The notes under the pieces are model-generated. The model saw nothing but the letters and a program-made list of their open reading frames with translations. It did not search any database and was not told the DNA's origin. The translations under genes were made by a program, and so were the position numbers. DNA of 64,000 bases, taken from IMG/VR virus record IMGVR_UViG_3300008267_000033, positions 1 through 64,000 of that record; one strand, 5' to 3'. Shown here piece after piece: positions 16,413-54,736 of the stretch; position 1 is the stretch's first letter; each line of letters starts with the position of its first letter. This DNA is from a virus. Lineage: Duplodnaviria > Heunggongvirae > Uroviricota > Caudoviricetes.

Positions 16413-16441
16413 ATTATAGCAGAAGTTGAATTAATGGTCAA
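16413..16441 (-). promoter_or_regulatory. sigma70-type promoter (TTGACC, 17-nt spacer, TATAAT) for the VWA/CobT-like gene
   Basis: Minus strand: -35 TTGACC at 16436-16441, -10 TATAAT at 16413-18, then AAGGAA SD and the second ATG. Confidence 0.6.
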
Positions 16442-16442
16442 T

Positions 16443-16460
16443 GTAGTACTTGAGTATTAC
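16443..16460. promoter_or_regulatory. 18-bp imperfect palindrome GTAGTACTTGAGTATTAC abutting the -35 of the 16413-41 promoter
   Basis: Half-sites GTAGTAC / GTAATAC inverted around TTGA; copies also at 21046-63, 41748-65 and 34360-77. Confidence 0.4.
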
Positions 16461-16461
16461 A

Positions 16462-17010
16462 CTAGTCTGACGCCGAATGAATTTCTATCAAAGGAATATG
16501 GTCGGGATGCTGTATGACGTAATCAATTATTTTAGCAATACTATCTAGTGCTAACCATTTTTCATGTCCAGGTTTGCCATCATTTAGTCCGCCGGCAATT
16601 ATATGTGAAGTTTTAATTCCTTTTTTGTTGTTCAATTGCAGGCTCCGGTCTCGCAATGCTCGCTTTTGTATACTGTATCCACCATAAATGCTATCTATGC
16701 GACCATCATCAACTCCCATCCACTCAGCAGTGCTTCCGATGTTTATAATATGCCCTTTGATATTGTGCTTGGACCAAACATGCCATGTGGTTTCAAGCAA
16801 TGCTAATTGTCCACCATTGCATATAAAACTGCTGTTGATAAAAACATTGTAGTTTTTAATCTTGTTTTGAAAAAAGTCTTCACTGCCCGAATCCCAAAAT
16901 CTCAAATCGTATCCAGTTGCCCTGCTAGCAAATTCTGCCTGAGGAAATTTTCTTTTGATAGCCGAAGCCACAGTAGTATGATCGGGGTTTCCTGTGCAAA
17001 GTATATTCAT
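16462..17010 (-). CDS. hypothetical protein
   Basis: ORF track. Confidence 0.3.
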   Translation of the reverse strand: MNILCTGNPDHTTVASAIKRKFPQAEFASRATGYDLRFWDSGSEDFFQNKIKNYNVFINSSFICNGGQLALLETTWHVWSKHNIKGHIINIGSTAEWMGVDDGRIDSIYGGYSIQKRALRDRSLQLNNKKGIKTSHIIAGGLNDGKPGHEKWLALDSIAKIIDYVIQHPDHIPLIEIHSASD

Positions 17011-18149
17011 GATATAATTTTACTCCATTCGGGGGTTAACGCCTTGAAATCTGTACCTCGTATGTGATTCAATGCAGATATATTTTTCCAAAAATGATCA
17101 TGGGATTGGTCGCTTGTTTTCAAGGATTGCACCAACAGGAGTAATTGGTTGTAGTTTTGAAATTTGCGTTGTAGCGTGGCATGACCCGACTCTGACAGAT
17201 AATCAAGTTCAAAATCACCAACTGCTTTTTGAAAAATTAAATTAGTTGGGTCGCCATATCTGTTTGAAGAAAAATTTTCATTCCACCAATCCCATACTTC
17301 GTTTAAATAAAAAAAGTTAAGATAACTCCATGTACAATTTATATTGAACATATGGTTGTGTGGCATATTAGCATAGAACCAATCCAAGGTAGAGTTGACT
17401 TTGTTCCAGTCTGCTCCAGTGCGTTGGTAATCAAATCGAGCACCAACATCATCAATGCTGAAATACAGTTCAATCAACTGACATTTCTCCCATAATTGTA
17501 AAATTTCATCCGACACTGTTTGCGTAGCATTGGTATTATAAAATACTCTAACATCTGACAGTCCTTTTACTTGTTGAATTTTTTGCAAAAGTCTAACATG
17601 ATTCTCAGACAACAGTGGTTCGCCACCACCATGAAAATGCACATGCTTGATATTTTCCAAAAGAGCCTGGTCAGTTATTTCTAATTGTTCATTTTTTTTG
17701 TATTGAAACGGTGCAATATCATATGTGGGGTGTAATTTTTGATAATCAGGAATCCATTGTGAACTGTTTTGAGGTCCGCATATGACACATTTCAAATTGC
17801 ATAAATTTCCAACACTGTAGTCAATACCTGTTGGCCCAGACAACTCAATGTTGATGTCTTTATGGTATTCTTCGTATAGTTTTTTTGATCCTTGTCGTCG
17901 GCTTTCTATCCCAGCATCTTCGGCACTGTAGCAGGCCTGGCATCCTGGTATAAAGGCATCAGTTTCAACACATTTTTTTAGCTCTAAGTGTTCGGGGCTA
18001 TTCCACACATCAGTCAAATTGAACTCTGATGATGTTTTGATATATCCATTGTAAAAAGAACAAGGATTGTAACCCAGTTCACCGTTGTGAGACCATATGG
18101 CAAGATTTTTATAAATTTCGTAGCAAAAGTATTTTTTATTTTTCATCAC
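17007..18149 (-). CDS. radical SAM protein
   Basis: CNLKCVIC = CxxxCxxC radical SAM cluster motif; 380 aa. Confidence 0.55.
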   Translation of the reverse strand: MMKNKKYFCYEIYKNLAIWSHNGELGYNPCSFYNGYIKTSSEFNLTDVWNSPEHLELKKCVETDAFIPGCQACYSAEDAGIESRRQGSKKLYEEYHKDINIELSGPTGIDYSVGNLCNLKCVICGPQNSSQWIPDYQKLHPTYDIAPFQYKKNEQLEITDQALLENIKHVHFHGGGEPLLSENHVRLLQKIQQVKGLSDVRVFYNTNATQTVSDEILQLWEKCQLIELYFSIDDVGARFDYQRTGADWNKVNSTLDWFYANMPHNHMFNINCTWSYLNFFYLNEVWDWWNENFSSNRYGDPTNLIFQKAVGDFELDYLSESGHATLQRKFQNYNQLLLLVQSLKTSDQSHDHFWKNISALNHIRGTDFKALTPEWSKIIS

Positions 18150-18451: not shown

Positions 18452-18885
18452 TATGCAGTGCCTAAATGTGCCAGTTCAAAGAACATAAGTTCCTTGTCCG
18501 AAGCCACGTAGATTCTATAGTTGCGGTACTCGGTGCTGTAGGCCCACTGTAGATTTAGATCATCTGACTGATGGCTTGAAGGTACTGTATCATTCAGTTG
18601 TTCAGCAATCTCGTTCTGTGTCTTGACATCTGTACTCCAGCCATATGTGCGGTTGAACCAACGTCGGGCTCGATCAAACTCCAGCACACCACTGCTGTAA
18701 TCACCCTTGGGGAATTCAATGGTGTACCGATAGATCTTGCTCCAACTGTTGCGACCATTTAGTTTGACAATTTCGTATTTCATATTAAAAGGGTGGCACA
18801 GCCACAGCCCTGTAAGACTGCACCACCCACCCCCATCAGCTGGCTTGCAAAATGTACTTGCCGTAACGAGCATGGAACTCGTCAA
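18451..18885 (-). CDS. hypothetical protein
   Basis: ORF track. Confidence 0.3.
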   Translation of the reverse strand: MTSSMLVTASTFCKPADGGGWCSLTGLWLCHPFNMKYEIVKLNGRNSWSKIYRYTIEFPKGDYSSGVLEFDRARRWFNRTYGWSTDVKTQNEIAEQLNDTVPSSHQSDDLNLQWAYSTEYRNYRIYVASDKELMFFELAHLGTA

Positions 18886-19927
18886 ACACCTTGATCTTGG
18901 TAGGCTGCATCGGCAACATATAAGTTGTCAGTGCAATACGAGCACCCAACACCACCAGTTCAGTCTCAAAGTTCTTCATCATATATGCCAAAAAGTTATT
19001 GCTCATTTCATGGAACTCTTTGTCTGACACTTTCTTTTGCTCAATGGCGTCTTTGAGTTCGTAGCACATGCTGATGACCAAACTGTACATGGCCGACACT
19101 TCTTTCACATTCAAGTCTGTTACCTTGCCACTCAAGATGTCCGAGGGCTGGGGCATGCGTCCGGACACTTTGCGGTGTGCTTTGAATTTCACAGCAAGGC
19201 CCTCGCCCACAGTACCTGCAATCAGGTTCATTTCTGTGTCCTCGTCACATTCATCCGCCAACAGCTCACTCACAAAACTCCAAGAGCGCGGTGTTGCAAA
19301 TGCACGTGAACTGGACTTGGCATCAAAGTCGTACAAGTCCTGCTTGGCAAAACTCAAGTAACCCACCACGTCTTTGTGGATGTTGTGATTCACAGCCCAC
19401 TCTTGCCATGATGCAAAGTCTACACGCATTTCCTGGTGAACAAAACGATTTGCCAGCGGAGTCGGCATGCGGAAGGTAACACCTTTGTCTGATTCACGAT
19501 TACCTGCTGCCACCATCACCACATTGTCAGGCAGTTTATACTTGCCAATGCGTCGATTCAAAATCAACTGATATGCGGCACTCTGCACTGACGCTGGAGC
19601 TGAGTTCATCTCGTCCAAAAACAGCACCACCACAGGGTACTGGCTGGCAGTTTCTTCATCGGGCATTTCCACAGGGGGAGCCCAATCCATCTTGCCAATG
19701 TCTTTGTTGTAAAACGGAATACCACGAATGTCTGTGGGTTCCATCTGTCCCAGGCGCAAGTCAATCATCAAGCCACCAAGTTCTTCTGTGATGCCAGCCA
19801 CAACTTCGCTCTTGCCGATGCCGGGAGGACCCCACAAAAACATAGGACGCTTTTTCTTAAAAGCATGCATGATGGATTTACGAACTTGGGCACTGGTTAC
19901 TGTACGTGCATCTGATACTGCTGACAT
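18836..19927 (-). CDS. cobS: AAA+ ATPase, CobS/MoxR-like
   Basis: Walker A FLWGPPGIGKSEV; Walker B VVVLFLDEMN; about 360 aa; neighboured by the VWA/CobT-like gene as in phage cobS/cobT pairs. Confidence 0.65.
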   Translation of the reverse strand: MSAVSDARTVTSAQVRKSIMHAFKKKRPMFLWGPPGIGKSEVVAGITEELGGLMIDLRLGQMEPTDIRGIPFYNKDIGKMDWAPPVEMPDEETASQYPVVVLFLDEMNSAPASVQSAAYQLILNRRIGKYKLPDNVVMVAAGNRESDKGVTFRMPTPLANRFVHQEMRVDFASWQEWAVNHNIHKDVVGYLSFAKQDLYDFDAKSSSRAFATPRSWSFVSELLADECDEDTEMNLIAGTVGEGLAVKFKAHRKVSGRMPQPSDILSGKVTDLNVKEVSAMYSLVISMCYELKDAIEQKKVSDKEFHEMSNNFLAYMMKNFETELVVLGARIALTTYMLPMQPTKIKVFDEFHARYGKYILQAS

Positions 19928-20171
19928 GGGCTGTTTCCTTTCGGGGGTTGTAGTAAGTTAAGTCGTTATTGTAGTTGATTGTGAATTTGTTGTCAACATG
20001 CATAGTTGCAGTTTTGCAACAGGTCATCGCGCACAATTTCTGCAATCATCTCTTGTGCTTCGCCTATGCTGAAGCCGTATTCTTGCACAACAAAATCAAT
20101 AACTTGATCTTCAGTGCAGTTGAGGCTGATCATTTCTTGAATGTCAGTGTAAAGTCTGCTCATCTGTCCCA

Positions 20172-20363
20172 TTATAGGTTCTCCTCCATTAATTGGTCAT
20201 CAATTTCACTCAACATGTCGTGCAACAAGCCACTGATCTCATCAAAGTCCACGCACTCGGGTTCAAACAGTCTTCGAAACTCTGTTATCTTTTTAGTCAA
20301 TACTTCAACAGCGTCAACCAGTTCGTCGAATCTGGCTTCAGCCTGTTCTAACTTCTCGCTCAT
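20172..20363 (-). CDS. hypothetical small acidic protein
   Basis: ORF track. Confidence 0.3.
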   Translation of the reverse strand: MSEKLEQAEARFDELVDAVEVLTKKITEFRRLFEPECVDFDEISGLLHDMLSEIDDQLMEENL

Positions 20364-20635
20364 TATGCTGTCTCCCGATCTGTGATGTAAGTGAATAAAA
20401 CAAATTTGGCACGGTTCAGCAGTTGTCGCTGATCTTCTATGGTGTTGAAGTCGGGCTGTTCGTATGCCATCATTTCCTGTGCATCGCTCAGCATACTTGC
20501 CACAACCATTGCAGGTCCTGAAAAACGGAACGTGCTACCGGACTCCACTGCTTCACGCATCTGTGCTTCAGTGCAACCGTACATGCCCACTTCACGGATT
20601 TCTTTAGTTGTCAGTCCTTCAAACGCTTTTCTCAT
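20363..20635 (-). CDS. hypothetical early protein (90 aa)
   Basis: Start set to ATG 20633-20635, preceded by AGGAG and the consensus promoter at 20666-20694; the longer track ORF would begin upstream of the promoter. Confidence 0.4.
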   Translation of the reverse strand: MRKAFEGLTTKEIREVGMYGCTEAQMREAVESGSTFRFSGPAMVVASMLSDAQEMMAYEQPDFNTIEDQRQLLNRAKFVLFTYITDRETA

Positions 20636-20665
20636 CTCAGGCTCCTTTTTGCTTTGTATGCCACT

Positions 20666-20694
20666 ATTATAACAGTTTGGCAATTATTGGTCAA
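20666..20694 (-). promoter_or_regulatory. sigma70-type promoter cassette (TTGACC-17-TATAAT) with conserved 24-nt 5' UTR AGTGGCATACAAAGCAAAAAGGAG
   Basis: -35 at 20689-94, -10 at 20666-71, SD 20642-46, ATG 20633-35. Confidence 0.65.
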
Positions 20695-20702
20695 CCAAAA
20701 TG

Positions 20703-20954
20703 TCAACTGTATTGTGTGGTATCTTCCATCGCCACGGTCAAGCCCAGTTGTTCCAAGACTTCCCACTCAGGTTTTTCACGCCAGGTTTGAATGTATGCCT
20801 CTTTGACGTCGTGGGCCAATGCCCGGGCAAATTTCTTACTCTGCATGATCTTTTGCATCTTGCGGGCGTCAACGATTTCAACGCCTGGCAGATTTTCAAA
20901 CACTGCCTGCAGTTCTTTTTCCGAGAATTCAATGGTCACTGTGATCTTGTTCAT
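20703..20954 (-). CDS. hypothetical early protein
   Basis: ATG 20952-20954 preceded by AGGAG and the consensus promoter at 20985-21013. Confidence 0.4.
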   Translation of the reverse strand: MNKITVTIEFSEKELQAVFENLPGVEIVDARKMQKIMQSKKFARALAHDVKEAYIQTWREKPEWEVLEQLGLTVAMEDTTQYS

Positions 20955-20984
20955 TGCGAGCTCCTTTTTGCTTTGTATGCCATT

Positions 20985-21013
20985 ATTATAGCAAATTGGG
21001 AATTTCCGGTCAA
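20985..21013 (-). promoter_or_regulatory. sigma70-type promoter cassette (CTTGACC-17-TATAAT) with the same conserved 5' UTR
   Basis: -35 at 21008-13, -10 at 20985-90, UTR AATGGCATACAAAGCAAAAAGGAG, ATG 20952-54. Confidence 0.65.
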
Positions 21014-21014
21014 G

Positions 21015-21044
21015 AAAAACCCTGCATCGAGCAGGGTTTTAAAA
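21015..21044. terminator. bidirectional rho-independent terminator
   Basis: AAAAACCCTGC atcgag GCAGGGTTTTAAAA: 7-bp GC stem flanked by A- and T-runs, between the phosphoesterase stop and the next promoter. Confidence 0.6.
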
Positions 21045-21045: not shown

Positions 21046-21063
21046 GTAGTACTTGAGTATTAC
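21046..21063. promoter_or_regulatory. 18-bp palindrome GTAGTACTTGAGTATTAC (copy 2), upstream of the terminator and promoter unit at 20985-21044
   Basis: Identical to the copy at 16443-60. Confidence 0.4.
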
Positions 21064-21065: not shown

Positions 21066-21680
21066 TTAATCCACATGGTGTTCGGTCTTGAAATTGCCGT
21101 TTTTGAATCCAATCTCTCCACCTTCTGCTTGGATGCGCCGGTACACATCATCCAACAATATGGGTGCAAAGTCAGTCTGTTCCACGCACACACAATGGTA
21201 TCGCGGATCGATCTCAGTGCCGTACAATACTTCACCGGTCTTGGCGTTGACACCACGGGCCCGTTTCACACGACTGGCGTGCAAGTGTCCGTGAATGTTG
21301 GTACCAAAGCGACCCAACGAGGCCTCATGCACAGGGATATGACTCAAGATCATTCCGTTCATCACATGGTATGCCCGCAACTCACGAAAGTATTCGCGAT
21401 ACTCCACATCCGGAAAGATATCATGGTTGCCGCGAATCAATACCTTGTCCCCGTTCAAGCGAGCCAAAGTTTTCAACGCACGGCGGTTGATAACCACGTC
21501 ACCCAAATGGTACACTTTGTCAGTGGGCCGGACTCGTGCGTTCCACTTTGCAACCATGTCCTCATCCATCTCCTCGGGAGTGTCGTAAGGACGCAACTTG
21601 GTCACGCCATCGTTGCGAGTGAACTTGCACACACCCATGTGTCCAAAATGTGTGTCACTTACCAAAAACGTTGCTGGCAT
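21066..21680 (-). CDS. calcineurin-like metallophosphoesterase
   Basis: N-terminal FLVSDTHFGH, the DxH(x)nGDxxDR-type metallophosphatase motif; own consensus promoter and SD. Confidence 0.65.
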   Translation of the reverse strand: MPATFLVSDTHFGHMGVCKFTRNDGVTKLRPYDTPEEMDEDMVAKWNARVRPTDKVYHLGDVVINRRALKTLARLNGDKVLIRGNHDIFPDVEYREYFRELRAYHVMNGMILSHIPVHEASLGRFGTNIHGHLHASRVKRARGVNAKTGEVLYGTEIDPRYHCVCVEQTDFAPILLDDVYRRIQAEGGEIGFKNGNFKTEHHVD

Positions 21681-21705: not shown

Positions 21706-21734
21706 ATTATAACAGATTGGGCATTTCTGGTCAA
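21706..21734 (-). promoter_or_regulatory. sigma70-type promoter (CTTGACC-17-TATAAT) for the metallophosphoesterase gene
   Basis: -35 at 21729-34, -10 at 21706-11, AGGAG SD, ATG 21678-80. Confidence 0.6.
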
Positions 21735-22950: not shown

Positions 22951-22979
22951 AGTATAACAAAGAATCCATTGAGTGTCAA
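22951..22979 (-). promoter_or_regulatory. sigma70-type promoter (TTGACA-17-TATACT) for the small basic protein / RpoZ-like operon
   Basis: -35 at 22974-79, -10 at 22951-56, immediately downstream of the terminator hairpin at 22987-23008. Confidence 0.5.
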
Positions 22980-22982: not shown

Positions 22983-23008
22983 AAAAGGGCCGACGGCCCT
23001 TTTGGTTT
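22983..23008. terminator. rho-independent terminator (bidirectional)
   Basis: GAAAAGGGCC gac GGCCCTTTTGGTTT. Confidence 0.5.
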
Positions 23009-23760: not shown

Positions 23761-23789
23761 TTGTGTTTTACCAAAATTTATTATATAAT
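23761..23789 (+). promoter_or_regulatory. sigma70-type promoter (TTGTGT-17-TATAAT) for the plus-strand aminotransferase gene; the ATG lies 2-5 nt after the -10 (leaderless)
   Basis: -35 at 23761-66, -10 at 23784-89, ATGATG at 23792-97. Confidence 0.45.
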
Positions 23790-23791
23790 GT

Positions 23792-26832: not shown

Positions 26833-26850
26833 GTGTTTGCTAAGTAACGT

Positions 26851-27552: not shown

Positions 27553-27553
27553 C

Positions 27554-30251: not shown

Positions 30252-30280
30252 ATTATACAATAAACGGAATCTATCGTCAA
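30252..30280 (-). promoter_or_regulatory. sigma70 consensus promoter (TTGACG-17-TATAAT) reading into the tRNA block 30147 to 29558
   Basis: -35 revcomp of cgtcaa at 30275-80, -10 revcomp of attata at 30252-57; about 100-nt leader before the tRNA at 30147. Confidence 0.6.
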
Positions 30281-31745: not shown

Positions 31746-31977
31746 TTGTTAGATATACGAATATAGTCTATCAGAACCCCGGGTCTCCTGGAATACTGTT
31801 GAATGTGCCATTGGCCAACAGCCAGGTTGTTGCCTGGAAGGACATGGGTTTTGTCATTGAACAGAATTGTTGTTTCATCATAGTTCCTATTATAGTTTAT
31901 TTATTATTTGTTGTCAACCACAGAGCAAAATTATTTGCAGTGCTCTGCATTACAAAACTCATTCTATTGCTAGTATA

Positions 31978-34168: not shown

Positions 34169-34196
34169 TTGCTTTCTAACTAGTCTCTAGTATAAC
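34169..34196 (+). promoter_or_regulatory. sigma70-like promoter, copy 1 of a 32-bp direct repeat (TTGCTT-16-TATAAC)
   Basis: TTGCTTTCTAACTAGTCTCTAGTATAACATCT at 34169-34200. Confidence 0.4.
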
Positions 34197-34267
34197 ATCT
34201 TGTGTTATTCTGGTCAACTTGTTTTGCAAAATCCCTTTGCTTTGTAGGGTCTTTGCAAACTTTGCTG

Positions 34268-34377: not shown

Positions 34378-34532
34378 GTACCACTGCTCCCGCTGTTAGT
34401 ATAGGCCAGCGCCTCACGTGTATAATCATGTGAGGGTATCTCAAAGGACAGTTGGGTGTATTGCTTGTTCATAGTTTATTATATATGACAGTGAGTCGAA
34501 AGTCAATGATTTGTTAGATGTCTTTTGCCAAT

Positions 34533-34724
34533 TTATGTTCTTCCGGGTGGAGGTTTTGTAGTACCTAGTTGTCGCTCAAACGAACCAGGTCCTGCCAGTT
34601 CGGGTGGTAGTGGTGGCGGAACATAACGTTCCTTCACAGGCTTCTTGCCAAAAATTGATTCGTGTCTGGTGGCCAGTTCTTGTTGACTGACCACTGATGG
34701 ACGGGGTCTTGTGCCTTTGCTCAT
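34533..34724 (-). CDS. small Pro-rich basic protein (63 aa)
   Basis: GAGGAGA SD 5 nt upstream of the ATG. Confidence 0.35.
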   Translation of the reverse strand: MSKGTRPRPSVVSQQELATRHESIFGKKPVKERYVPPPLPPELAGPGSFERQLGTTKPPPGRT

Positions 34725-34780
34725 GGTGTCTCCTCAAATGTGTAGTATATATTAGTGTTGCCAGTGGGTCAACACTTTTA

Positions 34781-37005: not shown

Positions 37006-37080
37006 TGGTGCCCACAGAGGGAATTGAACCCCCACTCAAGCGATTATGAGTCGCCTGCTTTACCATTAAGCTATGTGGGC
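37006..37080 (-). tRNA. tRNA-Met/Ile2 (anticodon CAT), third CAT tRNA in the array
   Basis: Acceptor GCCCACA/TGTGGGC; anticodon stem GGCGA/TCGCT with loop CTCATAA; GGGGGTTCAATTCCCTC; CCA. Confidence 0.65.
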
Positions 37081-37103
37081 TGATGTATATTGTAACAGGA
37101 ATT

Positions 37104-39158
37104 TTATTTATTGTCAAGCGACACTGTTGGTCTGGTCCAGACATCTGTGTGAACCCACTTGAAATCAAAATCTAATGATTGGCCTTGACCATGATGGTTG
37201 GCAGCTGGATTGTGATCATAAGTTTCGGCTTGTAAACTGATATCAAAATCTGCGTTCCATACCCCATCTGCATTAATTTCAAAATTGTAAACAGCACGGA
37301 ATTCAAATTTTGTTCCTGATGAACAATTATCAGGATATTTTGGATATCGTCTTGTGCCAAATTCTTTGAGATCTCGATCTGGATCAAACTCCACTCTAAA
37401 CCGGTAGGCACCCATGGCCAACCAGAACACCCGCAACAAAGGCCAAATTTCGTTGATCAAACTATTGGCCATGGGATTGATGTTCACTTTGATGATCTCG
37501 TAGTCAAAGTCTTTTTCCCAAGGAATTGAATCTGCCCAATTTGCAGGGTCTGACTCAATCTGATATTGATTTTTTAAGTCAGGTTCTTGACAGTGCGGTT
37601 GATAACGCCTTTTGGTGCCGTGCAATCTAAATTGTTCCAGCAGTATATTGGTAAGTTTGAATCTGACAAATCTGTGAAACACAGTGTTGCGCAGATCCTG
37701 TGTGGCCCATCCGTGAGTCCAGTCAATTCGTCTCACACCAAATCGTTCGCGTTCTAGATCCAAGGGTGTGTTGTGTCCCAGTCCGCAGGTGCCGGCACTT
37801 TGTGCGCCCATGCCTGAGTTACGCAGCCGCCACATCAAGGTTTGTGTTTGTGCCACGTCAGTCAATTCTTCGCCTGGAAATCCTGTGAACCAAGTAGCAA
37901 ACTGATTGCAAAAATCAATCTCAGCCATGTCGTTAAAATTTTGTTCGATCCATTCCACTCGACAATTTTTTTTCATCAAGTCCAGCACATTCTGTGATCC
38001 AGATTCCACACCAAAAGCAAACCCTGTGGCTCCTGATCGTTTTAACAGTGCCCAAAAGTCTCGGTCCATTTTACCATCAATTCGACTGTAGCCACTCCAA
38101 CTGATACATATTTGTCTTTCCATCAGTCCTTCAGCAAACCCTCTCAACTCACGAAGATTTCCATTCAGCAAACTGTCTATGAATGTGACACTTTGTATGT
38201 GTTGATTGCGATAGGCAATTTCAATTTCCTTCAACACACGAGATCCTTGACGGGCACGATATTTCCAAAACACTGTTTCATTGCAATACACACAGTTGGC
38301 AATGCACCCTCGGCTGAATTCGCTGGTTATGCCGTAAGATTCATATAACGAGATATCAAAATCACTGTAGTCAGCTGGGGGCATGCTGTCTAGATCTATA
38401 CGTGCATCTTTGCTTTGAGTTAAAAATTTTGGCAATTCTTCAGTGGGATTTTCTATGTTTTCCAGCACCTGCAACCACAACATTTCACCTTCGCCAGACA
38501 CATAATGATCAATTGCAGGGTTGTCGGCTCGGCTACCGCCAGGGCTAACGCCGCTGTTGTTGTTCATTTGTGTGATATTGGGACCGCCAATGATGATTTT
38601 TAAATCAGGTGATCGGCGTTTGAATTGTTCAATCATCCACATGACACATGCATCGTTGGTGTACCAACAACTGAATCCCAATACTGTGGGCTGCCAAGAC
38701 AAGATTTCATCTAAGTATGGCGTCAACATTGGCTCAAGCATGGGGTGCAATATCTTGCTGTAATGAGGATCTTGCCATTTCCAATCTTCATAACTGCTCC
38801 AATACGGCAGCAACTCCGGGCCTGCTTGTTTTTTACACACAGCATTGATATCCCATGTTTTGGTAGCAAACCCTGCATGCTTGCTCAGTGCTGCCATTCT
38901 AGCAATGCCATATGGTGGCGAAACAGTACTCCATTCGGGCATGACAATCAGTGCCACACGATTTGATCTAATTGTTTCGTAATGTATTACAACTTCAGTG
39001 AGATTTTTTTGTTTGCGACTTTCAGTTGGACTTTTTTGTGCGGCCACAAACATTTCAGAAAGTTTCACATGTGTGTCATTGCCGACCGCGACTGGAGACA
39101 CAGTTGGATACTGTGTTGTTTGAATGGGTATTATTTTTTTTGAATCGATAACTGACAT
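37104..39158 (-). CDS. B12-binding-domain radical SAM (class B) protein
   Basis: N-terminal Rossmann-like B12-binding region followed by FSRGCIANCVYC (CxxxCxxC); 684 aa. Confidence 0.6.
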   Translation of the reverse strand: MSVIDSKKIIPIQTTQYPTVSPVAVGNDTHVKLSEMFVAAQKSPTESRKQKNLTEVVIHYETIRSNRVALIVMPEWSTVSPPYGIARMAALSKHAGFATKTWDINAVCKKQAGPELLPYWSSYEDWKWQDPHYSKILHPMLEPMLTPYLDEILSWQPTVLGFSCWYTNDACVMWMIEQFKRRSPDLKIIIGGPNITQMNNNSGVSPGGSRADNPAIDHYVSGEGEMLWLQVLENIENPTEELPKFLTQSKDARIDLDSMPPADYSDFDISLYESYGITSEFSRGCIANCVYCNETVFWKYRARQGSRVLKEIEIAYRNQHIQSVTFIDSLLNGNLRELRGFAEGLMERQICISWSGYSRIDGKMDRDFWALLKRSGATGFAFGVESGSQNVLDLMKKNCRVEWIEQNFNDMAEIDFCNQFATWFTGFPGEELTDVAQTQTLMWRLRNSGMGAQSAGTCGLGHNTPLDLERERFGVRRIDWTHGWATQDLRNTVFHRFVRFKLTNILLEQFRLHGTKRRYQPHCQEPDLKNQYQIESDPANWADSIPWEKDFDYEIIKVNINPMANSLINEIWPLLRVFWLAMGAYRFRVEFDPDRDLKEFGTRRYPKYPDNCSSGTKFEFRAVYNFEINADGVWNADFDISLQAETYDHNPAANHHGQGQSLDFDFKWVHTDVWTRPTVSLDNK

Positions 39159-40703: not shown

Positions 40704-40916
40704 TTATGCTGTCTCCCGATCAAATTTACGTTCAACATCTGCCCACAGGGCAGGGTTCATCATGTCTGTATGGTATGCACAAATTTCTTCGGCATCCTCA
40801 AGCACCGAGCACCGGTCTACTGTGGTGCCAGCATACACACCTTCAACTGTTTCGGACCAACGAACCACGTCCCAACGTTCGGCTTTGTCATGCCATTCAA
40901 CTGTGAATCTCATCAT
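40704..40916 (-). CDS. hypothetical small acidic protein
   Basis: ORF track. Confidence 0.3.
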   Translation of the reverse strand: MMRFTVEWHDKAERWDVVRWSETVEGVYAGTTVDRCSVLEDAEEICAYHTDMMNPALWADVERKFDRETA

Positions 40917-41284
40917 GCAGCCTTTCTAAAATAACCGTAGGGCAAGCCCTGGGTGAAACAAAAATAGTCGGCGTCGCCATTGGCGTGTTCAGCATCCATG
41001 AGCCAGGCAATCACACGCTCACGGTCGGCGCCTGTGTGCATGAGACTAGTAACACGATCTTCAAACTTCACAACAGCGTCGGCTTCAGCTGTCTTGCGGT
41101 CAGCCTCTTCACGCTGGATCACAGCACCAAGGCTGGCAAACTCTATTTCAAAGTCTGCAAAGGTCCAGCTGGAGGTGTCAACACCACGGGGACGATGGCC
41201 GTAAGCGTCCTTGTACATGTCCCAATAGGTGCATTGGGCTTGCTCAAGATCTGTCATGTCTTCCCAAGATTTCAACTGTTCCAT
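40913..41284 (-). CDS. hypothetical early protein
   Basis: ATG 41282-41284 preceded by AGGAG and the consensus promoter at 41315-41343. Confidence 0.35.
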   Translation of the reverse strand: MEQLKSWEDMTDLEQAQCTYWDMYKDAYGHRPRGVDTSSWTFADFEIEFASLGAVIQREEADRKTAEADAVVKFEDRVTSLMHTGADRERVIAWLMDAEHANGDADYFCFTQGLPYGYFRKAA

Positions 41285-41314
41285 TGCTGACTCCTTTTTG
41301 CTTTGTATGCCACT

Positions 41315-41343
41315 ATTATAGCAGTTTGTGAATTATTGTGCAA
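41315..41343 (-). promoter_or_regulatory. sigma70-type promoter cassette (TTGCAC-17-TATAAT) with the conserved 5' UTR AGTGGCATACAAAGCAAAAAGGAG
   Basis: -35 at 41338-43, -10 at 41315-20, SD 41291-95, ATG 41282-84. Confidence 0.6.
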
Positions 41344-41665
41344 CCGATTTAACACGCACATCAGTGTTGAGTGAAGGTGTGTACTTTTGTATTAACTCGC
41401 GCTCTAACTTGTGTGCAACATCTTTGCCACGCACAATGTCCACGATTGCATAGTTTACAGCGGCTTCGCCTGCGGCACGAATTGCTTCGTACAGGTTCCA
41501 GCTCTTGTCTTCTGTGCGGGCGCGGTAGATGTGCTTGTTAACACGGCTACGAATAGACATGTTGATTGTGCGCTGAGTTTTAGCGGTAATACCAATGTAG
41601 TACTCCAATCCAATTTGGATTGTGTACACAATGTGGGTTCGATCAGTACGTTTCTTTCTTATCAT
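41333..41665 (-). CDS. GIY-YIG nuclease (standalone catalytic domain)
   Basis: IVYTIQ...YYIGIT GIY-YIG motif with downstream Arg/Glu/Asn; -10 box only 6 nt from the ATG (leaderless). Confidence 0.6.
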
Positions 41666-41671: not shown

Positions 41672-41700
41672 ATTATAGCATTTCGGGCATATTCGGTCAA
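41672..41700 (-). promoter_or_regulatory. sigma70-type promoter (TTGACC-17-TATAAT) giving a leaderless GIY-YIG mRNA
   Basis: -35 at 41695-700, -10 at 41672-77; only ACACAC between the -10 and the ATG at 41663-65. Confidence 0.55.
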
Positions 41701-41747
41701 CCGAACGGTTGTACTACAAAAGTACTACTTTTTGGGTTTCACACCCG

Positions 41748-49779: not shown

Positions 49780-50600
49780 AGATCAACGTGCAATCTGGGA
49801 CTGTACCAGTAGCCACGCTTGAGTGCTTCGTCAGCAACATTGATCCTGTTGCCATCGTATACCGACACCACACCGCCCACTGGCATCACAAACACAGGAC
49901 CACCAAACTCACGCAGGCGATATTCATCCACAGCACGATCCAGTTCGTTAAAGTCCGCAACCTTTTCCACCACAAACTTGAGATATGTCACACCGTATGT
50001 TTCGTAGTCCCATACCACGTCAGGCTTGATAGCATCCTCCCATGACTCTCCTGATACTGATAGTTTGGGACTTACACTGAAGGTGATCTCACCAAACCAA
50101 TTGCGCAAATAGTCCTTGAACTCTCGCGTCAAGTCTTGAGTACCATTGGTTTCAAATGTGATGTGTCGCAGGCCACGTTCGTGCAACACATCCAACAACT
50201 CAGGATAGGCACGTTGCCAACCCAGCAGTGGCTCGCCACCTGTGATCACAAGATGCACAGGATTGCCATTGGGTTGCAGCCAGTTACCACGGGGCAACAA
50301 TGCTGTCATCTTGTCAACCAGTTGTTCCACTGTATATGTGGGACTCAAGTGCTTGAAGTCTGGATGCCATGACGCATAACTGTCACAGCCTGTGTTCACT
50401 AGTGGCAGTTCTTCAAATGTCTTGTACAACTCCACAGTCTTGGCCACTTCGTCTGCTTCCTTACTCTTTTCTCCTGGCTTGCAACCAAATCCTGAACAGG
50501 TAAAGTTGCAACCAAACATACGCAAGAACACGCTGGGCACACCAACATAGCGTCCTTCACCTTGTGCTGAATAAAATAATTCTGATACTTTTAATTTCAT
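49755..50600 (-). CDS. queE: QueE-like 7-carboxy-7-deazaguanine synthase (radical SAM; atypical CX3CX4C cluster motif)
   Basis: MKLKVSELFYSAQGEGRYVGVPSVFLRMFGCNFTCSGFGC matches the QueE N-terminus ..EIFxSIQGEG..G.P..F.R..GC. Confidence 0.5.
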   Translation of the reverse strand: MKLKVSELFYSAQGEGRYVGVPSVFLRMFGCNFTCSGFGCKPGEKSKEADEVAKTVELYKTFEELPLVNTGCDSYASWHPDFKHLSPTYTVEQLVDKMTALLPRGNWLQPNGNPVHLVITGGEPLLGWQRAYPELLDVLHERGLRHITFETNGTQDLTREFKDYLRNWFGEITFSVSPKLSVSGESWEDAIKPDVVWDYETYGVTYLKFVVEKVADFNELDRAVDEYRLREFGGPVFVMPVGGVVSVYDGNRINVADEALKRGYWYSPRLHVDLWGNGWGK

Positions 50601-51307
50601 AATCTTGTTACCTTTGCCATGCCCGACTTGCGGGGATCTTTATTTAGATTGATACTTTCTTCATGCATTTTAACACGGGTTTCTGTTTTTGTCACCCAAC
50701 CTGGTAATACTGCATCCAAATAGGCCAAATGCTCCTCAGGACTAGGATGCGGATCGCCATTTCGATTGGGCCATCCAGTTTTGGCAAACACAGTTTTGTC
50801 ATAGCCCGGCAAGATAGTGTCCAATACATCACTGTACAATCTCATGACATCTCTGTGCAAACTAATATCATCATTGGGCCAAGGACGAGCCATGAGTTCT
50901 ACCATGCTTATGAATCGCCAGGTCAACCCTGTACGAGTTTCTAACAACGTTTTGACTGCCTTGATATATGCAAGGTCTCGTATCAAATACCCTCGCTCGT
51001 CTATGTGTGTTTTGAGATATTCTTTGTTGAATACGTTGGTTGCAAAATGCGCATTGCCTGGAGTGTGCCACCGTCCGTCAACATACCGATCTTCGCGATC
51101 TAAACTTGTCCAACAAACTATCACAGTATCGGCAACACCGAACTGATGACGTTGATCCGCTTCCATTACTGAGTTAAAAATGTAATGATTGCCGCCACCG
51201 GCCTGTCCCCAATTTTCAAAGTGATCAAATTCTGGTGCCAAGCAATCGGCCCAGGTGCTCCAACGATAGTTGGTAAAACTACACCCAAATGTAAACAGCC
51301 TTGACAT
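50597..51307 (-). CDS. SGNH/GDSL-like hydrolase paralog (GCSF variant)
   Basis: LFTFGCSFT, NWGQAGGGN (block II-like), HPSPEEH (block V-like). Confidence 0.35.
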   Translation of the reverse strand: MSRLFTFGCSFTNYRWSTWADCLAPEFDHFENWGQAGGGNHYIFNSVMEADQRHQFGVADTVIVCWTSLDREDRYVDGRWHTPGNAHFATNVFNKEYLKTHIDERGYLIRDLAYIKAVKTLLETRTGLTWRFISMVELMARPWPNDDISLHRDVMRLYSDVLDTILPGYDKTVFAKTGWPNRNGDPHPSPEEHLAYLDAVLPGWVTKTETRVKMHEESINLNKDPRKSGMAKVTRL

Positions 51308-53313
51308 CAGGTCACTAGTTGTTTTTTCTTAATTGAAAAAGCACCTTGTGCTTTGGCAGCACCTGCACCTCGACGTGTGCCCTTGACATTTTCAACACCA
51401 ATGCGATCCACTGTGGCCTTGCCAAAGTTTCTACGTCGGGCAAAATAAAACAGTTCCAAGAAACGGTTCAAACTCATGGTCTTGTCTTCGGGAAAATCCA
51501 GCCTGTATGTTGTGGCAGTTTTTTCCAAGGGCTGATTGAAACTGAGATAATCCCAGATGTTGTAATCTACATCAAGATTCATGGGATATTGATTTCTATC
51601 ATTGTACTTGATGTAGTAATTTCTTTGCAGTTTCATCAAACTGGCCAACAAATCTTCGGGCAAGTTATAACGTTGTAAAAACTTTTCCAGCACGTCATAC
51701 AGTTCATCCACACGGTCTTCCTGGTGCATGTTCATACTTGTTCTGTGAATGATGTTCCAGCCATGTATTTCTACACCAATCTTGGGATGGTTGATTTTGC
51801 CAGTCATCATCCAGTTGGCAAAGTATTGGCGTGTTTCGGCTTCTTCTTTCTTCACCCATTCATTGGTCATAAAATACTCAAACAAATCTTCATAGTAATC
51901 ATTGTAACTGATGCCCATGTACTTGTTGATGAAACGTGCAACTAGTGTAGCAAAGCCATTGATGTGGAATGTGGTTTGAAACCAGGAGAAAATCTGTGCA
52001 TCCAACATAATGGGTGTGGGCATGTCCTTGGTGCCTGTTATGACATCAATACTTTCTTCAATGTGTTCCACACTGTAACTGCCGGCAAAGTAATCTGTCA
52101 CAGGCTGACTGGTGATCTTGAACAGCTTCTTTTGCAACAGGTTCATCTCAGCATTTTCCAACAACTGTGCCTGGAACACAGTGATGCCGGTGTGCTGATT
52201 CAAGTCATACAGGGCATAGAAGTTCTTTTTCCATGTTTCCAATGTCTCACCAGGCAAGCCCAAGATCAGTTCTGTGTAAGCAGGAATGTTGCGTTGATCA
52301 CACAATTCAAACACTTCGTTTAGCTTGTTCATTTCCATGTTCTTGCGACGAATGTTTTCCAGCACGTCATGGTCCAGACTTTGCACACTCAGTGTGAGGC
52401 CTTGATTGAAGCCACGTGCATCCAGCAGTTTCTTCACAATGTCTATGACTTCTTTCTTTTGATTCTTGGCCCAGGCCACACTGAATGTTCTGGGTGAGCC
52501 ATATTTTTCTTGCATTTCAATAATCTTGTCTGCAATCATGCCATCACGTTCGGGGAACATGCCAAAGTTAGCATCAGTGATTGAGATCCAGTCAAAGTTT
52601 CGCTTGGCCATCCATTCCAGTTCTTCAAACACACGTTCAAGTTCAAACTTCTTGACCTTGTTGTAGGTCAGACTGCCCCAGTCACAAAATGTACAAGCAT
52701 AAGGGCAACCACGATTGGTTTCCAATGTGCCTTGCCATGTGACTTCGGGATGCTGAGCTATCATTTGGTCAAAGATACCTGACAAATAAGGACTGGCTAC
52801 TTCTTCCAAACTTTCAATGCGTTCAGCATCTTGTGTTTTTACTGCTTCGCCGTCTCTGTTGATCAATAGACCTGGCACTGTTTCCCAGTCTTGAGTTTCA
52901 AAATGTTCCAACACACGTTTGAAAGTTATCTCACCTTCATAACAAATCACAAGATCTATAAACGGTTCTTTGACAAACAATTCGGGATCAGTTATGGCCA
53001 CTTCTGGTCCACCAAATATGGTCAACACTGAGGGATTGATTTCTTTGATACGTCGAGCCAGGGCGTAGTTGTAACGATGATTCCACACATACGTACTGAA
53101 GGTTACAATTTCGTTCTTGGCCAAGCGTTGTGCCAATGGCTCCACAGCATCTCTACGCCAAATCCAATCTGTAACTTCAAATTGTTCACGTATGCAAGGA
53201 TCTGCCAGGCTGTAACTCCATACCACACCTGCTGAATATGGCAGGTAATATGCGTTGAATTCTTTTGGCCCTTGTTGAAAGTTGGGCTGAACAAAGGCTA
53301 GTTTATATGTCAT
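51307..53313 (-). CDS. B12-binding-domain radical SAM (class B) protein
   Basis: TNRGCPYACTFC (CxxxCxxC) after an N-terminal B12-binding-like Rossmann region; 668 aa. Confidence 0.6.
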   Translation of the reverse strand: MTYKLAFVQPNFQQGPKEFNAYYLPYSAGVVWSYSLADPCIREQFEVTDWIWRRDAVEPLAQRLAKNEIVTFSTYVWNHRYNYALARRIKEINPSVLTIFGGPEVAITDPELFVKEPFIDLVICYEGEITFKRVLEHFETQDWETVPGLLINRDGEAVKTQDAERIESLEEVASPYLSGIFDQMIAQHPEVTWQGTLETNRGCPYACTFCDWGSLTYNKVKKFELERVFEELEWMAKRNFDWISITDANFGMFPERDGMIADKIIEMQEKYGSPRTFSVAWAKNQKKEVIDIVKKLLDARGFNQGLTLSVQSLDHDVLENIRRKNMEMNKLNEVFELCDQRNIPAYTELILGLPGETLETWKKNFYALYDLNQHTGITVFQAQLLENAEMNLLQKKLFKITSQPVTDYFAGSYSVEHIEESIDVITGTKDMPTPIMLDAQIFSWFQTTFHINGFATLVARFINKYMGISYNDYYEDLFEYFMTNEWVKKEEAETRQYFANWMMTGKINHPKIGVEIHGWNIIHRTSMNMHQEDRVDELYDVLEKFLQRYNLPEDLLASLMKLQRNYYIKYNDRNQYPMNLDVDYNIWDYLSFNQPLEKTATTYRLDFPEDKTMSLNRFLELFYFARRRNFGKATVDRIGVENVKGTRRGAGAAKAQGAFSIKKKQLVT

Positions 53314-53325
53314 CCTGTATTTACG

Positions 53326-54159
53326 TCATTTGGCAAAGTGCCGGTGTGGATTGTCAAATTGCACCATTTGCTTGTTGACATCATTCTGGGCTAATTTTTC
53401 CCAAGGATCTTGTGTGCCTTTGAATATGTTTGTAAAGAATTCAGTACTAATTCCTTGGTTGTGCATGTGCGTGGCCAACTTGACACAGTCCTGATGTCGT
53501 AGTTCAATCTGAGTCTTGCTGTGGAAATCTGCTTCGTCAAATGGACGTCCTTCTAGTGATGCACGTTCTTTGAATGTGGCATCGTTGTTGTTGCCCGTGA
53601 TGTCAGCACGGTCATGCAACACCCAAACAGGTATGCGTTCCCAAATGTCCAACATGTAGGCCTGTTGACTGAGCCAGCCATCTTGCACACTGTGCGGACT
53701 GATATAGCCCAACAACTCATACCACTTGCGTGGCAGTATGGGAAAGATGCTGTAGGGATGATCCAAGTGAGTGTGGAATGCCAGCAGTTTGAATTCCCCT
53801 TCACGGTTCATAATCTCTGTGTCCCAACTTTTGGTCTCCATCACAGCATCATCGTTCCAGATCATCAGCCAACTAGCATCTGTATGTTCGGCCAGTTTGT
53901 TGTTGTACACATTGAGTCTATGGTAGCCCTGGCGTTCAAACTGCATGGCAGTATAACTGAGTTCTTGCTGGTCCAGCCATGGCTGTAGTTCAGTACGGAA
54001 GTATTCAGTGCCTGCTGCATCGTCATTGTCAAACGCAAACATCAATTGTAGTCGGTCAGGACGATCAGCAAGACTGATCAGGCTGCGAACACTGCGACCT
54101 AAACTTTCAGTGCGGCCTCGTGTGGCCAACAGCATTGCAATATCGTACTCAGGTGTCAT
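53326..54159 (-). CDS. hypothetical protein
   Basis: ORF track; no motif recognised. Confidence 0.3.
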   Translation of the reverse strand: MTPEYDIAMLLATRGRTESLGRSVRSLISLADRPDRLQLMFAFDNDDAAGTEYFRTELQPWLDQQELSYTAMQFERQGYHRLNVYNNKLAEHTDASWLMIWNDDAVMETKSWDTEIMNREGEFKLLAFHTHLDHPYSIFPILPRKWYELLGYISPHSVQDGWLSQQAYMLDIWERIPVWVLHDRADITGNNNDATFKERASLEGRPFDEADFHSKTQIELRHQDCVKLATHMHNQGISTEFFTNIFKGTQDPWEKLAQNDVNKQMVQFDNPHRHFAK

Positions 54160-54689
54160 GCAAACAAATCCTCATTCCATTCTCTATGGCCTTCTCTAAA
54201 AGCCATATTTGATTGTGTTTCTCTCACTTCTACTCGGTAGCACCACAAGCGTTGTGCCTCACCAGGCCCCCACATGTCGGGAATGTACACACCGTTCACG
54301 TACCGGTACAACTGATCAGCAAGACCTTCGCAGCCTAGTTTGGGTAATATAGTTAGCTTGGCAATGTTTCTGCGTTGCATTTCCCGGTAGAACTCCAATT
54401 CAGGATCGTCTTCTGCCACCAACAAGGTGTGATCAAATTGACTTTCCAACACTGCCTTGAGCTCTTTGAGTCCACCATAGTCAGCGGCCCAGTTGCGTGT
54501 GTCCAACTGATCTGTTCCAAAGTAGAACTTCATGGAGAAACTGTAACCATGTATCAAATTGCAATGGCTGTCTGCCCGCCACTGACGATATGCACATGGA
54601 AATGCATCGTGGTATTCTTTGGTACTGGTATATTTGTATTGTCTTGCGGACATCCAACGGTGTCCCACTTCATTTTGATCTTGTGTCAT
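54156..54689 (-). CDS. queD: 6-carboxytetrahydropterin synthase QueD / PTPS-like
   Basis: SHCNLIHGYSF = Cx3HGH(Y) PTPS/QueD motif; own promoter (TTTACA-17-TATAAT) and GGAGAA SD. Confidence 0.55.
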   Translation of the reverse strand: MTQDQNEVGHRWMSARQYKYTSTKEYHDAFPCAYRQWRADSHCNLIHGYSFSMKFYFGTDQLDTRNWAADYGGLKELKAVLESQFDHTLLVAEDDPELEFYREMQRRNIAKLTILPKLGCEGLADQLYRYVNGVYIPDMWGPGEAQRLWCYRVEVRETQSNMAFREGHREWNEDLFA

Positions 54690-54707
54690 GCTTTTTCTCC
54701 TATGTTA

Positions 54708-54736
54708 ATTATAGCATAGGCGGCAGAGTTTGTAAA
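54708..54736 (-). promoter_or_regulatory. sigma70-type promoter (TTTACA-17-TATAAT) for queD
   Basis: -35 at 54731-36, -10 at 54708-13, GGAGAA SD, ATG 54687-89. Confidence 0.55.

Follow-up and report, generated by a model that had tools for sequence, protein, structure and literature searches.

Predicted promoter cassettes in a 64-kb stretch of phage DNA

The stretch of DNA analyzed here (hereafter the window) comprises positions 1 to 64,000 of the IMG/VR virus record IMGVR_UViG_3300008267_000033, assigned to the Caudoviricetes. It carries 30 transfer RNAs (tRNAs) and a transfer-messenger RNA (tmRNA). Among its protein products are sugar-modifying enzymes, several proteins of the B12/radical-SAM type, and a MoxR-type ATPase accompanied by a DUF2201/VWA partner. 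In its intergenic gaps, immediately 5′ of minus-strand genes or tRNA operons, lie about 17 sites resembling promoters of the sigma70 type, the core of the cassettes with which this report is concerned. A preliminary description of the sequence had counted such promoters before at least ten genes, which proved an understatement, and had likened them to the promoter early stem-loop (PeSL) elements thought to mediate gene shuffling in T4-like phages.

The motif TTGACN-N17-TATAAT had eight exact matches in the window, all eight on the minus strand, and 24 matches with one mismatch, of which 22 were on the minus strand. An independent consensus scan of the 13–33 kb region returned ten sites with at least 11 of 12 matching positions, every one on the minus strand. 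A weight matrix was trained on the promoters of related contigs with the window left out and applied at a threshold of 12 bits (the loci compared with the window are designated by L-numbers, such as L004, L031 or L100). This relatives-only matrix found 14 minus-strand sites at or above threshold, no plus-strand site, and none in ten shuffled sequences. Enrichment of the motif over chance, a check named beforehand, was thus found within the window (eight exact matches against 0.07 ± 0.29 expected from dinucleotide-preserving shuffles). Because the shuffles yielded 0.07 motif matches, 0.00 copies of the leader described below and no matrix site, a chance origin of the promoter motif and of the leader repeats was ruled out.

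All nine minus-strand sites of the preliminary description were present at the coordinates it had given. The hexamers reported for them, TTGACC-N17-TATAAT, were those found at 16413, 20666, 20985, 21706 and 41672, but the site at 22951 has TATACT as its -10 element and that at 41315 has TTGCAC as its -35 element. Most of the sites precede genes as claimed; the site at 30252, like that at 37089, drives tRNA genes rather than a protein gene. The single plus-strand promoter that had been proposed, before a class IV aminotransferase gene (TTGTGT-N17-TATAAT, 23761..23789), is not well supported, its -35 element being poor, TGn being missing and its score with the family matrix falling below 12 bits; it is a weak site and not of the family type. 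Good sites that had been overlooked lie at 13787, 19968, 31889, 34189, 34288, 34478, 34744, 37089 and 58724. Judging from these sequence features, the cassettes very likely function as promoters.

An identical leader precedes unrelated small genes

Three of the minus-strand promoters are followed by the same leader. The promoter at 20666..20694 (TTGACC-N17-(TGt)TATAAT; 51.4 bits with the relatives-only matrix) is followed by a leader copy at 20642..20663 with a predicted start at the A at 20659, a Shine-Dalgarno (SD) sequence AAGGAG and the ATG, at 20635, of a gene for a protein of 90 amino acids (aa) (20363..20635). At 20985..21013 (TTGACC-N17-(TGc)TATAAT; 48.5 bits), the leader copy occupies 20961..20982, with a predicted start at 20978 and the ATG of an 83-aa gene (20703..20954) at 20954. 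The third promoter, at 41315..41343 (TTGCAC-N17-(TGc)TATAAT; 38.2 bits), has a -35 element that overlaps the end of the open reading frame (ORF) of a GIY-YIG-like gene and is conserved in L004, L033, L046, L056 and L075; its leader copy lies at 41291..41312, with a predicted start at 41308 and the ATG of a 123-aa gene (40913..41284) at 41284. As the preliminary description had noted, the three leaders are identical: the 22-mer TGGCATACAAAGCAAAAAGGAG occurs exactly at all three positions. The extended -10 element said to be shared by them is so only in part, in that TGn is present at all three sites while GCTATAAT is found at two and the site at 20666 has GTTATAAT. The three genes behind the identical leaders belong to three different BLASTP families. 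The proposal that promoter, 5′ untranslated region and SD sequence form a portable module is thus upheld, the same leader standing before three unrelated small proteins.

This leader extends far beyond the window. Exact copies of TGGCATACAAAGCAAAAAGGAG were found in 97 instances at 84 IMG/VR loci, on contigs of up to 364 kb, and the promoter-only pattern TTGACCNNNAATN8TGCTATAATA matched at least 120 further viral stretches; the cassette motifs are conserved in at least 200 related loci. In 199 of these loci plus the window, 536 promoter instances were collected, a start codon was assigned for 481, and their products fell into 115 BLASTP families. Allowing up to three mismatches, the canonical leader precedes 17 protein families, and in its exact form it precedes 13; the proteins concerned are 39–123 aa long, and none has a known function. 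Several discrete leader alleles, each reused before unrelated genes, were distinguished, among them TGGCATACAAAGCAAAAAGGAG, cttGTATAGAAACTAAAAAGGAG, tacaCATAGACAGCAAAAAGGAG and tgaaCATATTGTAACAAAAGGAG. Leaders of different genes differ at 10.1 of 22 positions within a locus and at 11.3 between loci, and so resemble each other hardly more within a locus than between loci.

Among the three window promoters, 3–7 of the 17 spacer positions differ as opposed to none of the 22 leader positions; the whole cassette has therefore not been recently copied. Across gene families, cassettes with the exact leader diverge by 35% in the spacer, by 48% in the 6 nt past the SD sequence and by 56% in the 20 nt 5′ of the -35 element. 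The leader is thus an island of identity between flanks that have diverged by 35–56%. This identity could reflect a sequence-specific constraint on the allele, repeated exchange of short tracts between cassettes, or both.

Other accounts of the leader were examined. Mimicry of a host leader was ruled out by the absence of any exact match to TGGCATACAAAGCAAAAAGGAG in 185,579 bacterial and archaeal species, each represented by one genome. In the window, no antisense partner of the leader was found with up to three mismatches allowed. A known RNA family was likewise rejected as an explanation, Rfam at gathering scores having returned only tRNAs and the tmRNA. The sigma54 consensus consists of GG and GC doublets at a fixed spacing, as in TGGCAC-N5-TTGC; a sigma54 promoter within the leader (TGGCA...GCA) was discarded, since in TGGCATACAAAGCA the GC doublet lies, by eye, 2 nt too near the GG.

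Anatomy of the cassettes

Assembled from the window and its relatives, a cassette comprises a dyad or hairpin, the promoter TTGACC-N17-(TGn)TATAAT, a predicted start that falls on the A of CATA, and an A-rich 24-nt leader with AAAGGAG. Positions 6–9 past the -10 element are conserved as Y (0.80), A (0.67–0.72), T (0.73–0.77) and R (0.85), also when canonical leaders were excluded, and the conserved YATA therefore fits a start at the A, 7 nt past the -10 element; on this basis the starts of the three identical cassettes are predicted at minus-strand positions 20659, 20978 and 41308. Leader length has a median of 24 nt; the leaders are 48% A, fold less than shuffled sequences, and end in AAAGGAG(CC) followed by 5–7 nt and the ATG.

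Upstream of the promoters, the 45 nt 5′ of the -35 element fold at or below -8 kcal/mol in 45% of cases, compared to 21% of shuffles, with family-wide values of -8.1 and -5.8 kcal/mol, respectively. A GC-rich hairpin with a T-run stands before the promoters at 20985, 22951, 13787, 30252 and 31889; that at 21014..21040 on the minus strand (aaaaccctgctcgatgcagggtttttc, identified by eye from the sequence) abuts the -35 element of the promoter at 20985 and makes up the stem-loop part of the cassette. Many cassettes have an AT-rich dyad in place of the hairpin, without a T-run where the dyad abuts the -35 element. This dyad, GTAnTAC-N4-GTAnTAC, was found at 52 of 78 cassettes with the canonical leader (67%) and at 42 of 342 others (12%). 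Three copies lie on the minus strand of the window: GTAATACTCAAGTACTAC at 16443..16460, abutting the -35 element of the promoter at 16413; GTAATACTCAAGTACTAC again at 21046..21063, 5′ of the promoter at 20985; and GTAGTACTTTTGTAGTAC at 41711..41728, 5′ of the promoter at 41672, farther 5′ of which a second, related palindrome, TAGTACTCAAGTATTAC, occupies about 41741–41757.

The dyad ends either 0 nt (47 cases) or 10–11 nt (38 cases) 5′ of the -35 element, offsets that differ by one helical turn, a shift that a protein site would be expected to show. Its half-sites keep a fixed spacing of 11 bp and retain their sequence rather than their complementarity. By these features, the dyad looks more like a protein site or an UP-like element than like a hairpin.

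Two further palindromic features touch the GIY-YIG-like gene. At 41586–41603 within this ORF, the codons of the YYIGIT catalytic motif read GTACTACATTGGTATTAC and fit GTAnTAC-N4-GTAnTAC, probably by a coincidence of TAC codons. In orthologues of the promoter at 41315, the -35 element and spacer are palindromic, reading TTGCCCAATAATGGGCAA in L004 and L056 and TTGCTCAATAATGAGCAA in L033; the two versions differ by a compensatory pair of changes, one of which falls in the final Ala codon of the GIY-YIG ORF and is synonymous. In the window, this palindrome is broken (TTGCAC...TCACAA).

Predicted leaderless transcripts

Not all promoters of the family are followed by a leader. Among 356 non-redundant, non-canonical promoters, 53 place the A of an ATG at position 7 past the -10 element, where a sharp peak of ATG occurs. 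The leaderless layout amounts to 55 non-redundant cases in at least 12 families, or about 13% of promoters, and the largest leaderless family (23 cases) is that of the window gene 41333..41665. The latter is driven by the promoter at 41672..41700 (minus strand; TTGACC-N17-TATAAT; 44.8 bits), and its start codon begins at 41665, the A being the seventh nucleotide past the -10 element; in the 23 non-redundant homologues, the ATG lies 5–7 nt past the -10 element, at the predicted start. A leaderless mRNA for this gene, as put forward in the preliminary description, is thus well supported by comparison of sequences, in a layout that is strictly conserved. The same proposal for the aminotransferase gene is doubtful, given the weak -35 element TTGTGT and a first ATG, at 23792, only 2 nt past the -10 element; only the second ATG, at 23795, would fit a leaderless start. 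Since the plus-strand block that holds this gene (23764–27590) is absent from L032, its promoter is also without comparative support.

The window protein encoded by 41333..41665 matches the GIY-YIG profile PF01541 with E = 0.057 and 14.2 bits, below the curated cut-off of 22.6. Of the 14 members of its family, 13 reach E ≤ 1, with 7.9e-6 as the best value, and three match SegE_GIY-YIG; the invariant residues of the family fit the expected motifs (IVY...YIGIT, R, H, ER..I and N). It is therefore plausible that the gene encodes a GIY-YIG nuclease, the window protein itself being sub-threshold. A profile search for a match among solved structures gave only spurious hits (designer-PPR). Consideration was also given to a hopping homing element, which was rejected: the gene is resident, though its neighbours vary, because it occupies the same backbone position, beside the homologue of 44.7–46.1 kb, in about 20 relatives.

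Elsewhere in the window, a 44-aa ORF (MKRELVNQVRELLERNL...) near 39280–39330 on the minus strand starts 7 nt past TTATAT (TTGTAT in L004 and L046), with no recognisable TTGACC -35 element, and may represent a second promoter type or another leaderless transcript. The promoter at 34478..34506 (minus strand; TTGACT-N17-TATAAT) has an ATG 5 nt past the -10 element that opens a candidate leaderless 33-aa ORF followed by a terminator, and that at 31889..31917 (minus strand; TTGACA-N17-TATAAT, 12 of 12 positions), with its hairpin 5′, has an ATG 7 nt past the -10 element.

Gene gain, loss and a crossover at the cassettes

Comparison of the window with related loci placed a number of gene-content differences at cassettes. 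In L031, an extra 357-aa gene lies between two promoter copies where the window has a single promoter at 21706..21734 (minus strand; TTGACC-N17-TATAAT; before a metallophosphoesterase gene at 21066..21680). The window promoter is a hybrid that carries the left flank of the upstream L031 copy and the -10 element and leader of the downstream copy; joining the flanks of two copies in this manner, it marks a crossover inside the promoter. L100 lacks a two-gene block of 1.7 kb (16462–18144), which in the window stops precisely where the dyad of the promoter at 16413 lies. A three-gene plus-strand island (41729–44390) ends at the dyad of the promoter at 41672; it is absent from L033, L184, L154, L104, L115 and L185, and other content stands in its place in L046 and L075. 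L004 and L046 lack the 684-aa radical-SAM gene at 37104–39158, whose end is flush with the -35 element of the promoter at 37089, and L154 has an extra 81-aa gene directly behind the cassette at 41315. Indel edges flush with cassettes were accordingly found at 16461, 37117, 41729 and the leader of the promoter at 41315. The promoter following the GIY-YIG-like gene has nine different genes downstream of it across contigs. Variable content as a whole falls at 16.4–18.1, 20.0–21.1, 21.7, 37.1–39.2 and 41.3–44.4 kb (compared with L100, L118, L043, L031, L004/L046, L154 and L033).

Two insertions in the window involve no cassette. More than 20 related loci lack a 343-aa gene without a Pfam or PHROG match (46093–47124, minus strand), and in all of them 46094 is joined directly to 47111–47130; from this alignment, it is a window-specific, cassette-free insertion at overlapping gene junctions. 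The closest relative, L100, lacks a 63-aa gene (20172–20363, minus strand) that was inserted precisely from ATG to ATG, supplies the SD sequence of the next gene and has a degenerate promoter-like ATGACCaattaat...TATAAT at its 3′ end. The plus-strand blocks at 23764–27590 and 41729–44390, in an otherwise minus-strand region, are both indels relative to relatives; the former, missing from L032, holds the aminotransferase gene, three more genes and two tRNAs.

Further predicted promoters of the window

The remaining family members, all on the minus strand, head genes of various kinds. The promoter at 16413..16441 (TTGACC-N17-TATAAT) serves the DUF2201/VWA gene, the true start of which is the ATG at 16389, with the SD sequence aaggaa, rather than that at 16410; leaders homologous to this one occur in L012, L043 and L100. 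The promoter at 22951..22979 (TTGACA-N17-(TGt)TATACT) has a terminator hairpin, gggccgtcggccc, closely 5′ at 22987–22999. At 13787..13815, TTGACA-N17-(TGc)TATACT precedes the gene at 12943..13737, and at 19968..19996, TTGACA-N17-TACAAT precedes the MoxR-like ATPase gene at 18836..19927, with an orthologous promoter in L118. Of the two promoters of tRNA genes, that at 30252..30280 (TTGACG-N17-TATAAT) lies 5′ of tRNA-Lys genes, and that at 37089..37117 (TTGACA-N17-(TGt)TACAAT) lies 8 nt 5′ of tRNA-Met (37006..37080). The promoter at 34744..34772 (TTGACC-N17-TATACT) stands before a 63-aa ORF at 34533..34724.

The promoter at 34189..34217 (TTGACC-N17-(TGt)TATACT) is followed by about 215 nt (33975–34217) that hold no convincing ORF and end in a U-run. 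For the 3′ half of the corresponding RNA, the fold is a tRNA-like cloverleaf in which GGTTCGATTCC forms the T-arm, with a minimum-free-energy z-score of -3.3; ARAGORN made no call on it, and Rfam returned only sub-threshold noise at 33.8–34.6 kb. Its first 20 transcribed bases (agagactagtYagaaagcaa) are repeated about 100 nt upstream behind a weaker tandem copy of the promoter (about 34288–34316). This element may represent either a degenerate tRNA or a structured RNA of a new kind.

A QueE-like gene (49755–50600), a QueD-like gene (54156–54689) and a GTP-cyclohydrolase gene (57962–58705) together suggest 7-deazaguanine modification of the DNA, as far as gene content can tell. Two of these three genes have family-type promoters of their own: TTTACA-N17-(TGc)TATAAT at 54708..54736 before the QueD-like gene, and TTGACC-N17-(TGt... 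gTG)TACAAT at 58724..58752 before the GTP-cyclohydrolase gene. Three radical-SAM proteins are encoded at 17007–18146, 37104–39158 and 51307–53313, two of them with a B12-binding domain.

Affiliation and host of the phage

No near match of the window was found among 50,697 cultured phage records (megablast, 20–24 kb), and no structural or replication core genes lie in the 64 kb. The MoxR-type ATPase is 52% identical to that of the Pseudomonas jumbo phage PA5oct and its relatives; Sinorhizobium phage Phosso and Agrobacterium phage Atu_ph07 rank next. An AAA protein of 342 aa, encoded repeatedly beside cassettes in related contigs, likewise matches PA5oct best, at 41–46%, compared to about 36% for T4-like phages. 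From these two best matches, the window is taken to derive from an uncultured large phage with PA5oct-like phages as its nearest cultured relatives. These matches do not show the phage to be T4-like, the best cultured ones being PA5oct-like at 41–52% amino-acid identity. In gene-sharing networks, PA5oct itself has only a distant link to T4-like phages (PMC7318152).

The tmRNA of the window (35381–35746, minus strand) gives a full-length match of 138.6 bits to the Rfam Betaproteobacteria tmRNA model, and one of 142.7 bits to the permuted-tmRNA model; its tag peptide reads ANDEQFALAA. The match to the former model points to a betaproteobacterial host. The promoter pattern was uninformative as to the host, its matches in bacterial genomes being mostly scattered Firmicutes and a few freshwater metagenome-assembled genomes (MAGs). 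Eight pattern matches on seven contigs (L208, L216, L221, L230, L235, L245 and L248) came from the Haliscomenobacter sp. MAG EUL_031; these contigs are probably phage contigs of the present clade that were mis-binned.

What the cassettes may be for

We favour the reading that the cassettes are PeSL-like units of early expression and recombination in an uncultured, PA5oct-related lineage, and put its probability at about 0.6; a new lineage is invoked because the closest cultured relatives are PA5oct-like and not T4. The cassettes would be the standard early-type expression units of a large uncultured group of big phages. Upon infection, the host RNA polymerase with its main sigma factor would fire all of them, and the short, A-rich, unstructured leader would let small proteins, presumably involved in host takeover, be translated efficiently; the GIY-YIG nuclease would be made instead from a leaderless mRNA. 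Being direct repeats of 50–100 bp that head small transcription units, the cassettes would also provide sites of homologous exchange at which genes are inserted, deleted and swapped. Gene exchange located at such cassettes has been shown experimentally for PeSLs in T4-like phages (PMC2839356, PMC4122927).

Several observations weigh against this reading. Only about seven of some 14 distinct indels between the window and its relatives touch a cassette, and about half have none at either end, the insertions at 46094–47119 and 20176–20360 among several other cassette-free indels; with cassettes at about one-fifth to one-quarter of gene junctions, seven of 14 is not a significant excess. Orthologous leaders generally diverge about as fast as the coding sequence, for which reason genome-wide concerted evolution of leaders was rejected as a general rule, and the same gene may carry a different leader allele behind a near-identical promoter (L019 compared with L159). 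Most dyads have non-complementary central bases (A/G or G/G) and would therefore make poor hairpins; true PeSLs have a stem-loop of the terminator type, to which the dyad may not correspond. Finally, promoter activity, start sites, early timing and the mechanism of recombination are read from sequence features throughout; in particular, it is from these features that we infer the "early" expression of cassette genes. The cassette-mediated shuffling claimed in the preliminary description thus stands as far as one crossover inside a promoter and several flush indels go, and not as regards an excess of indels at cassettes: individual junctions support the cassettes as putative recombination substrates, but statistics do not.

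These points leave room for a simpler account, which we consider rather unlikely: the cassettes would be ordinary strong promoters, with leaders kept identical by selection for translation initiation and indels adjacent to them only because they mark the boundaries of transcription units. The cassette-free half of the indels with the non-significant excess at cassettes, the general co-divergence of leaders with their genes, and the single design of all leader alleles (A-rich, AAAGGAG, 5–7 nt, ATG) fit this account. It is at odds with the crossover between the two flanking copies inside the promoter that separates the window from L031, a signature of recombination and not a boundary effect, and with leaders that differ at none of 22 positions next to 35% divergence in the spacer and 48% past the SD sequence, as optimization of expression seldom fixes 22 consecutive bases. 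A sigma factor or RNA polymerase encoded by the phage and having sigma70-like specificity is still harder to credit and in our view very improbable. What speaks for it is a spacer stereotyped across the clade (TTGACC-aaTAATtcCC-aaaaTGc) beyond the needs of sigma70, but the hexamers, the 17-nt spacing, TGn and the start 7 nt downstream are all canonical for sigma70, tRNA operons share these promoters, and the window proteins scanned included neither a sigma factor nor an RNA polymerase. Moreover, PA5oct, the nearest cultured relative, depends on the RNA polymerase of its host and has the same motifs, as stated in the available extract (PMC7318152).

The leader, and possibly the phased dyad, might alternatively be the recognition site of a trans-acting factor that co-regulates the small early proteins, an idea that is compatible with the favoured reading and that we hold only tentatively. 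The factor, no less speculatively, could be an RNA-binding protein from phage or host, a nuclease, or a small RNA. T4 RegA/RegB and the start-associated sequences (SAS) of mycobacteriophages serve as analogies, the latter offering a precedent (PMC3203893). Such a factor would account for the 22-nt island of identity between diverged flanks before the 13 exact-leader families, for discrete leader alleles reused before unrelated genes, and for a dyad whose half-sites keep an 11-bp spacing, their sequence but not their complementarity, and one of two positions (0 or 10–11 bp from the -35 element, in 47 and 38 cases). Against it, no candidate factor was found, there was neither an Rfam family nor an antisense match to the leader in the window, and 2–4 leader changes are tolerated in close relatives (for example TCACATAC... 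in L100 and L184). Conceivably, leader and dyad as factor sites would define a co-regulated set of at least 17 small early protein families in a very large uncultured clade of freshwater phages; the dyad might then bind a repressor or activator, and the leader, with the same low likelihood, an RNA-binding protein, nuclease or small RNA. Were this so, interaction with the factor rather than recombination alone would keep the leaders identical.

Under the favoured reading of PeSL-like cassettes as well, the most interesting leads are the cause of the 22-nt identity and the role of the dyad. For practical use, the motif set (promoter, predicted start, leader alleles and dyad) may serve to annotate transcription units in metagenomic genomes; it further provides a list of small proteins probably made first upon infection, a conserved class of leaderless transcripts, and a compact strong promoter and leader module as a candidate part for synthetic biology.

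Comparison with known systems

Known leaderless phage mRNAs are the basis of comparison for the layout seen here, in which the ATG coincides with the predicted start, 7 nt past the -10 element. The present clade differs in that the layout is a recurrent design, strictly conserved for one small nuclease-like gene.

The SAS and extended SAS (ESAS) elements of Cluster K mycobacteriophages resemble the cassette leader in being an SD-containing block, 3–7 nt before the ATG, that is conserved beyond what pairing with ribosomal RNA explains, and in preceding genes from various families within the non-structural genome portion while being absent from the host genome (PMC3203893). About half of the SAS sites, which have no known function, carry an upstream inverted repeat whose halves give no RNA hairpin (PMC3203893). 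SAS elements differ in their sequence (GGGATAGGAGCCC), in being shorter (13 bp) and not linked to promoters, and in belonging to temperate siphoviruses of Actinobacteria. The cassette leader was thus rejected as an SAS/ESAS element, since it does not contain the 13-bp GGGATAGGAGCCC; the logic alone is similar.

PA5oct is the closest cultured relative for two proteins of the window clade, at 41–52% identity. As given in the available extract of its description, it depends on the polymerase of its host for transcription, and 32 intergenic promoters with the motifs TTGAC and TATAATA are known from it (PMC7318152), which resemble the TTGACC...TATAATA of the present cassettes by description only. 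A shared leader, an upstream dyad and a role in gene shuffling are not described for PA5oct in that extract (PMC7318152).

The closest counterparts are the PeSLs of T4-type phages (PMC2839356, PMC4122927). Both systems combine an immediately upstream AT-rich stretch or stem-loop (the latter at only some of the present cassettes), a sigma70-like -35/N17/-10 promoter, an SD sequence and the ATG of a small gene; both occur in many copies of direct orientation within variable regions rich in small ORFans, and in both, relatives differ by insertion, deletion or replacement of genes at or within the cassettes. PeSL crossovers in T4-type phages fall between the -10 element and the ATG (PMC2839356), which is the position of the 22–23-nt identity in the present phage. 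The cassettes described here differ in that the phage, with its PA5oct-like best matches, is not T4-type by the evidence at hand; in that their upstream element is often a conserved AT-rich dyad with a central mismatch and helical phasing rather than a GC-rich terminator; in that an excess of breakpoints at cassettes is without statistical support; and in that an exact 22-nt leader recurs across at least 13 gene families and 84 loci. Until now, T4-type phages were the only ones documented to have cassettes of promoter and stem-loop by which small accessory genes are at once expressed and shuffled. The same architecture in a different, uncultured and very widespread lineage (at least 200 IMG/VR loci, on contigs of up to 364 kb) suggests that large lytic phages in general use such cassettes to organize and exchange their host-takeover genes.

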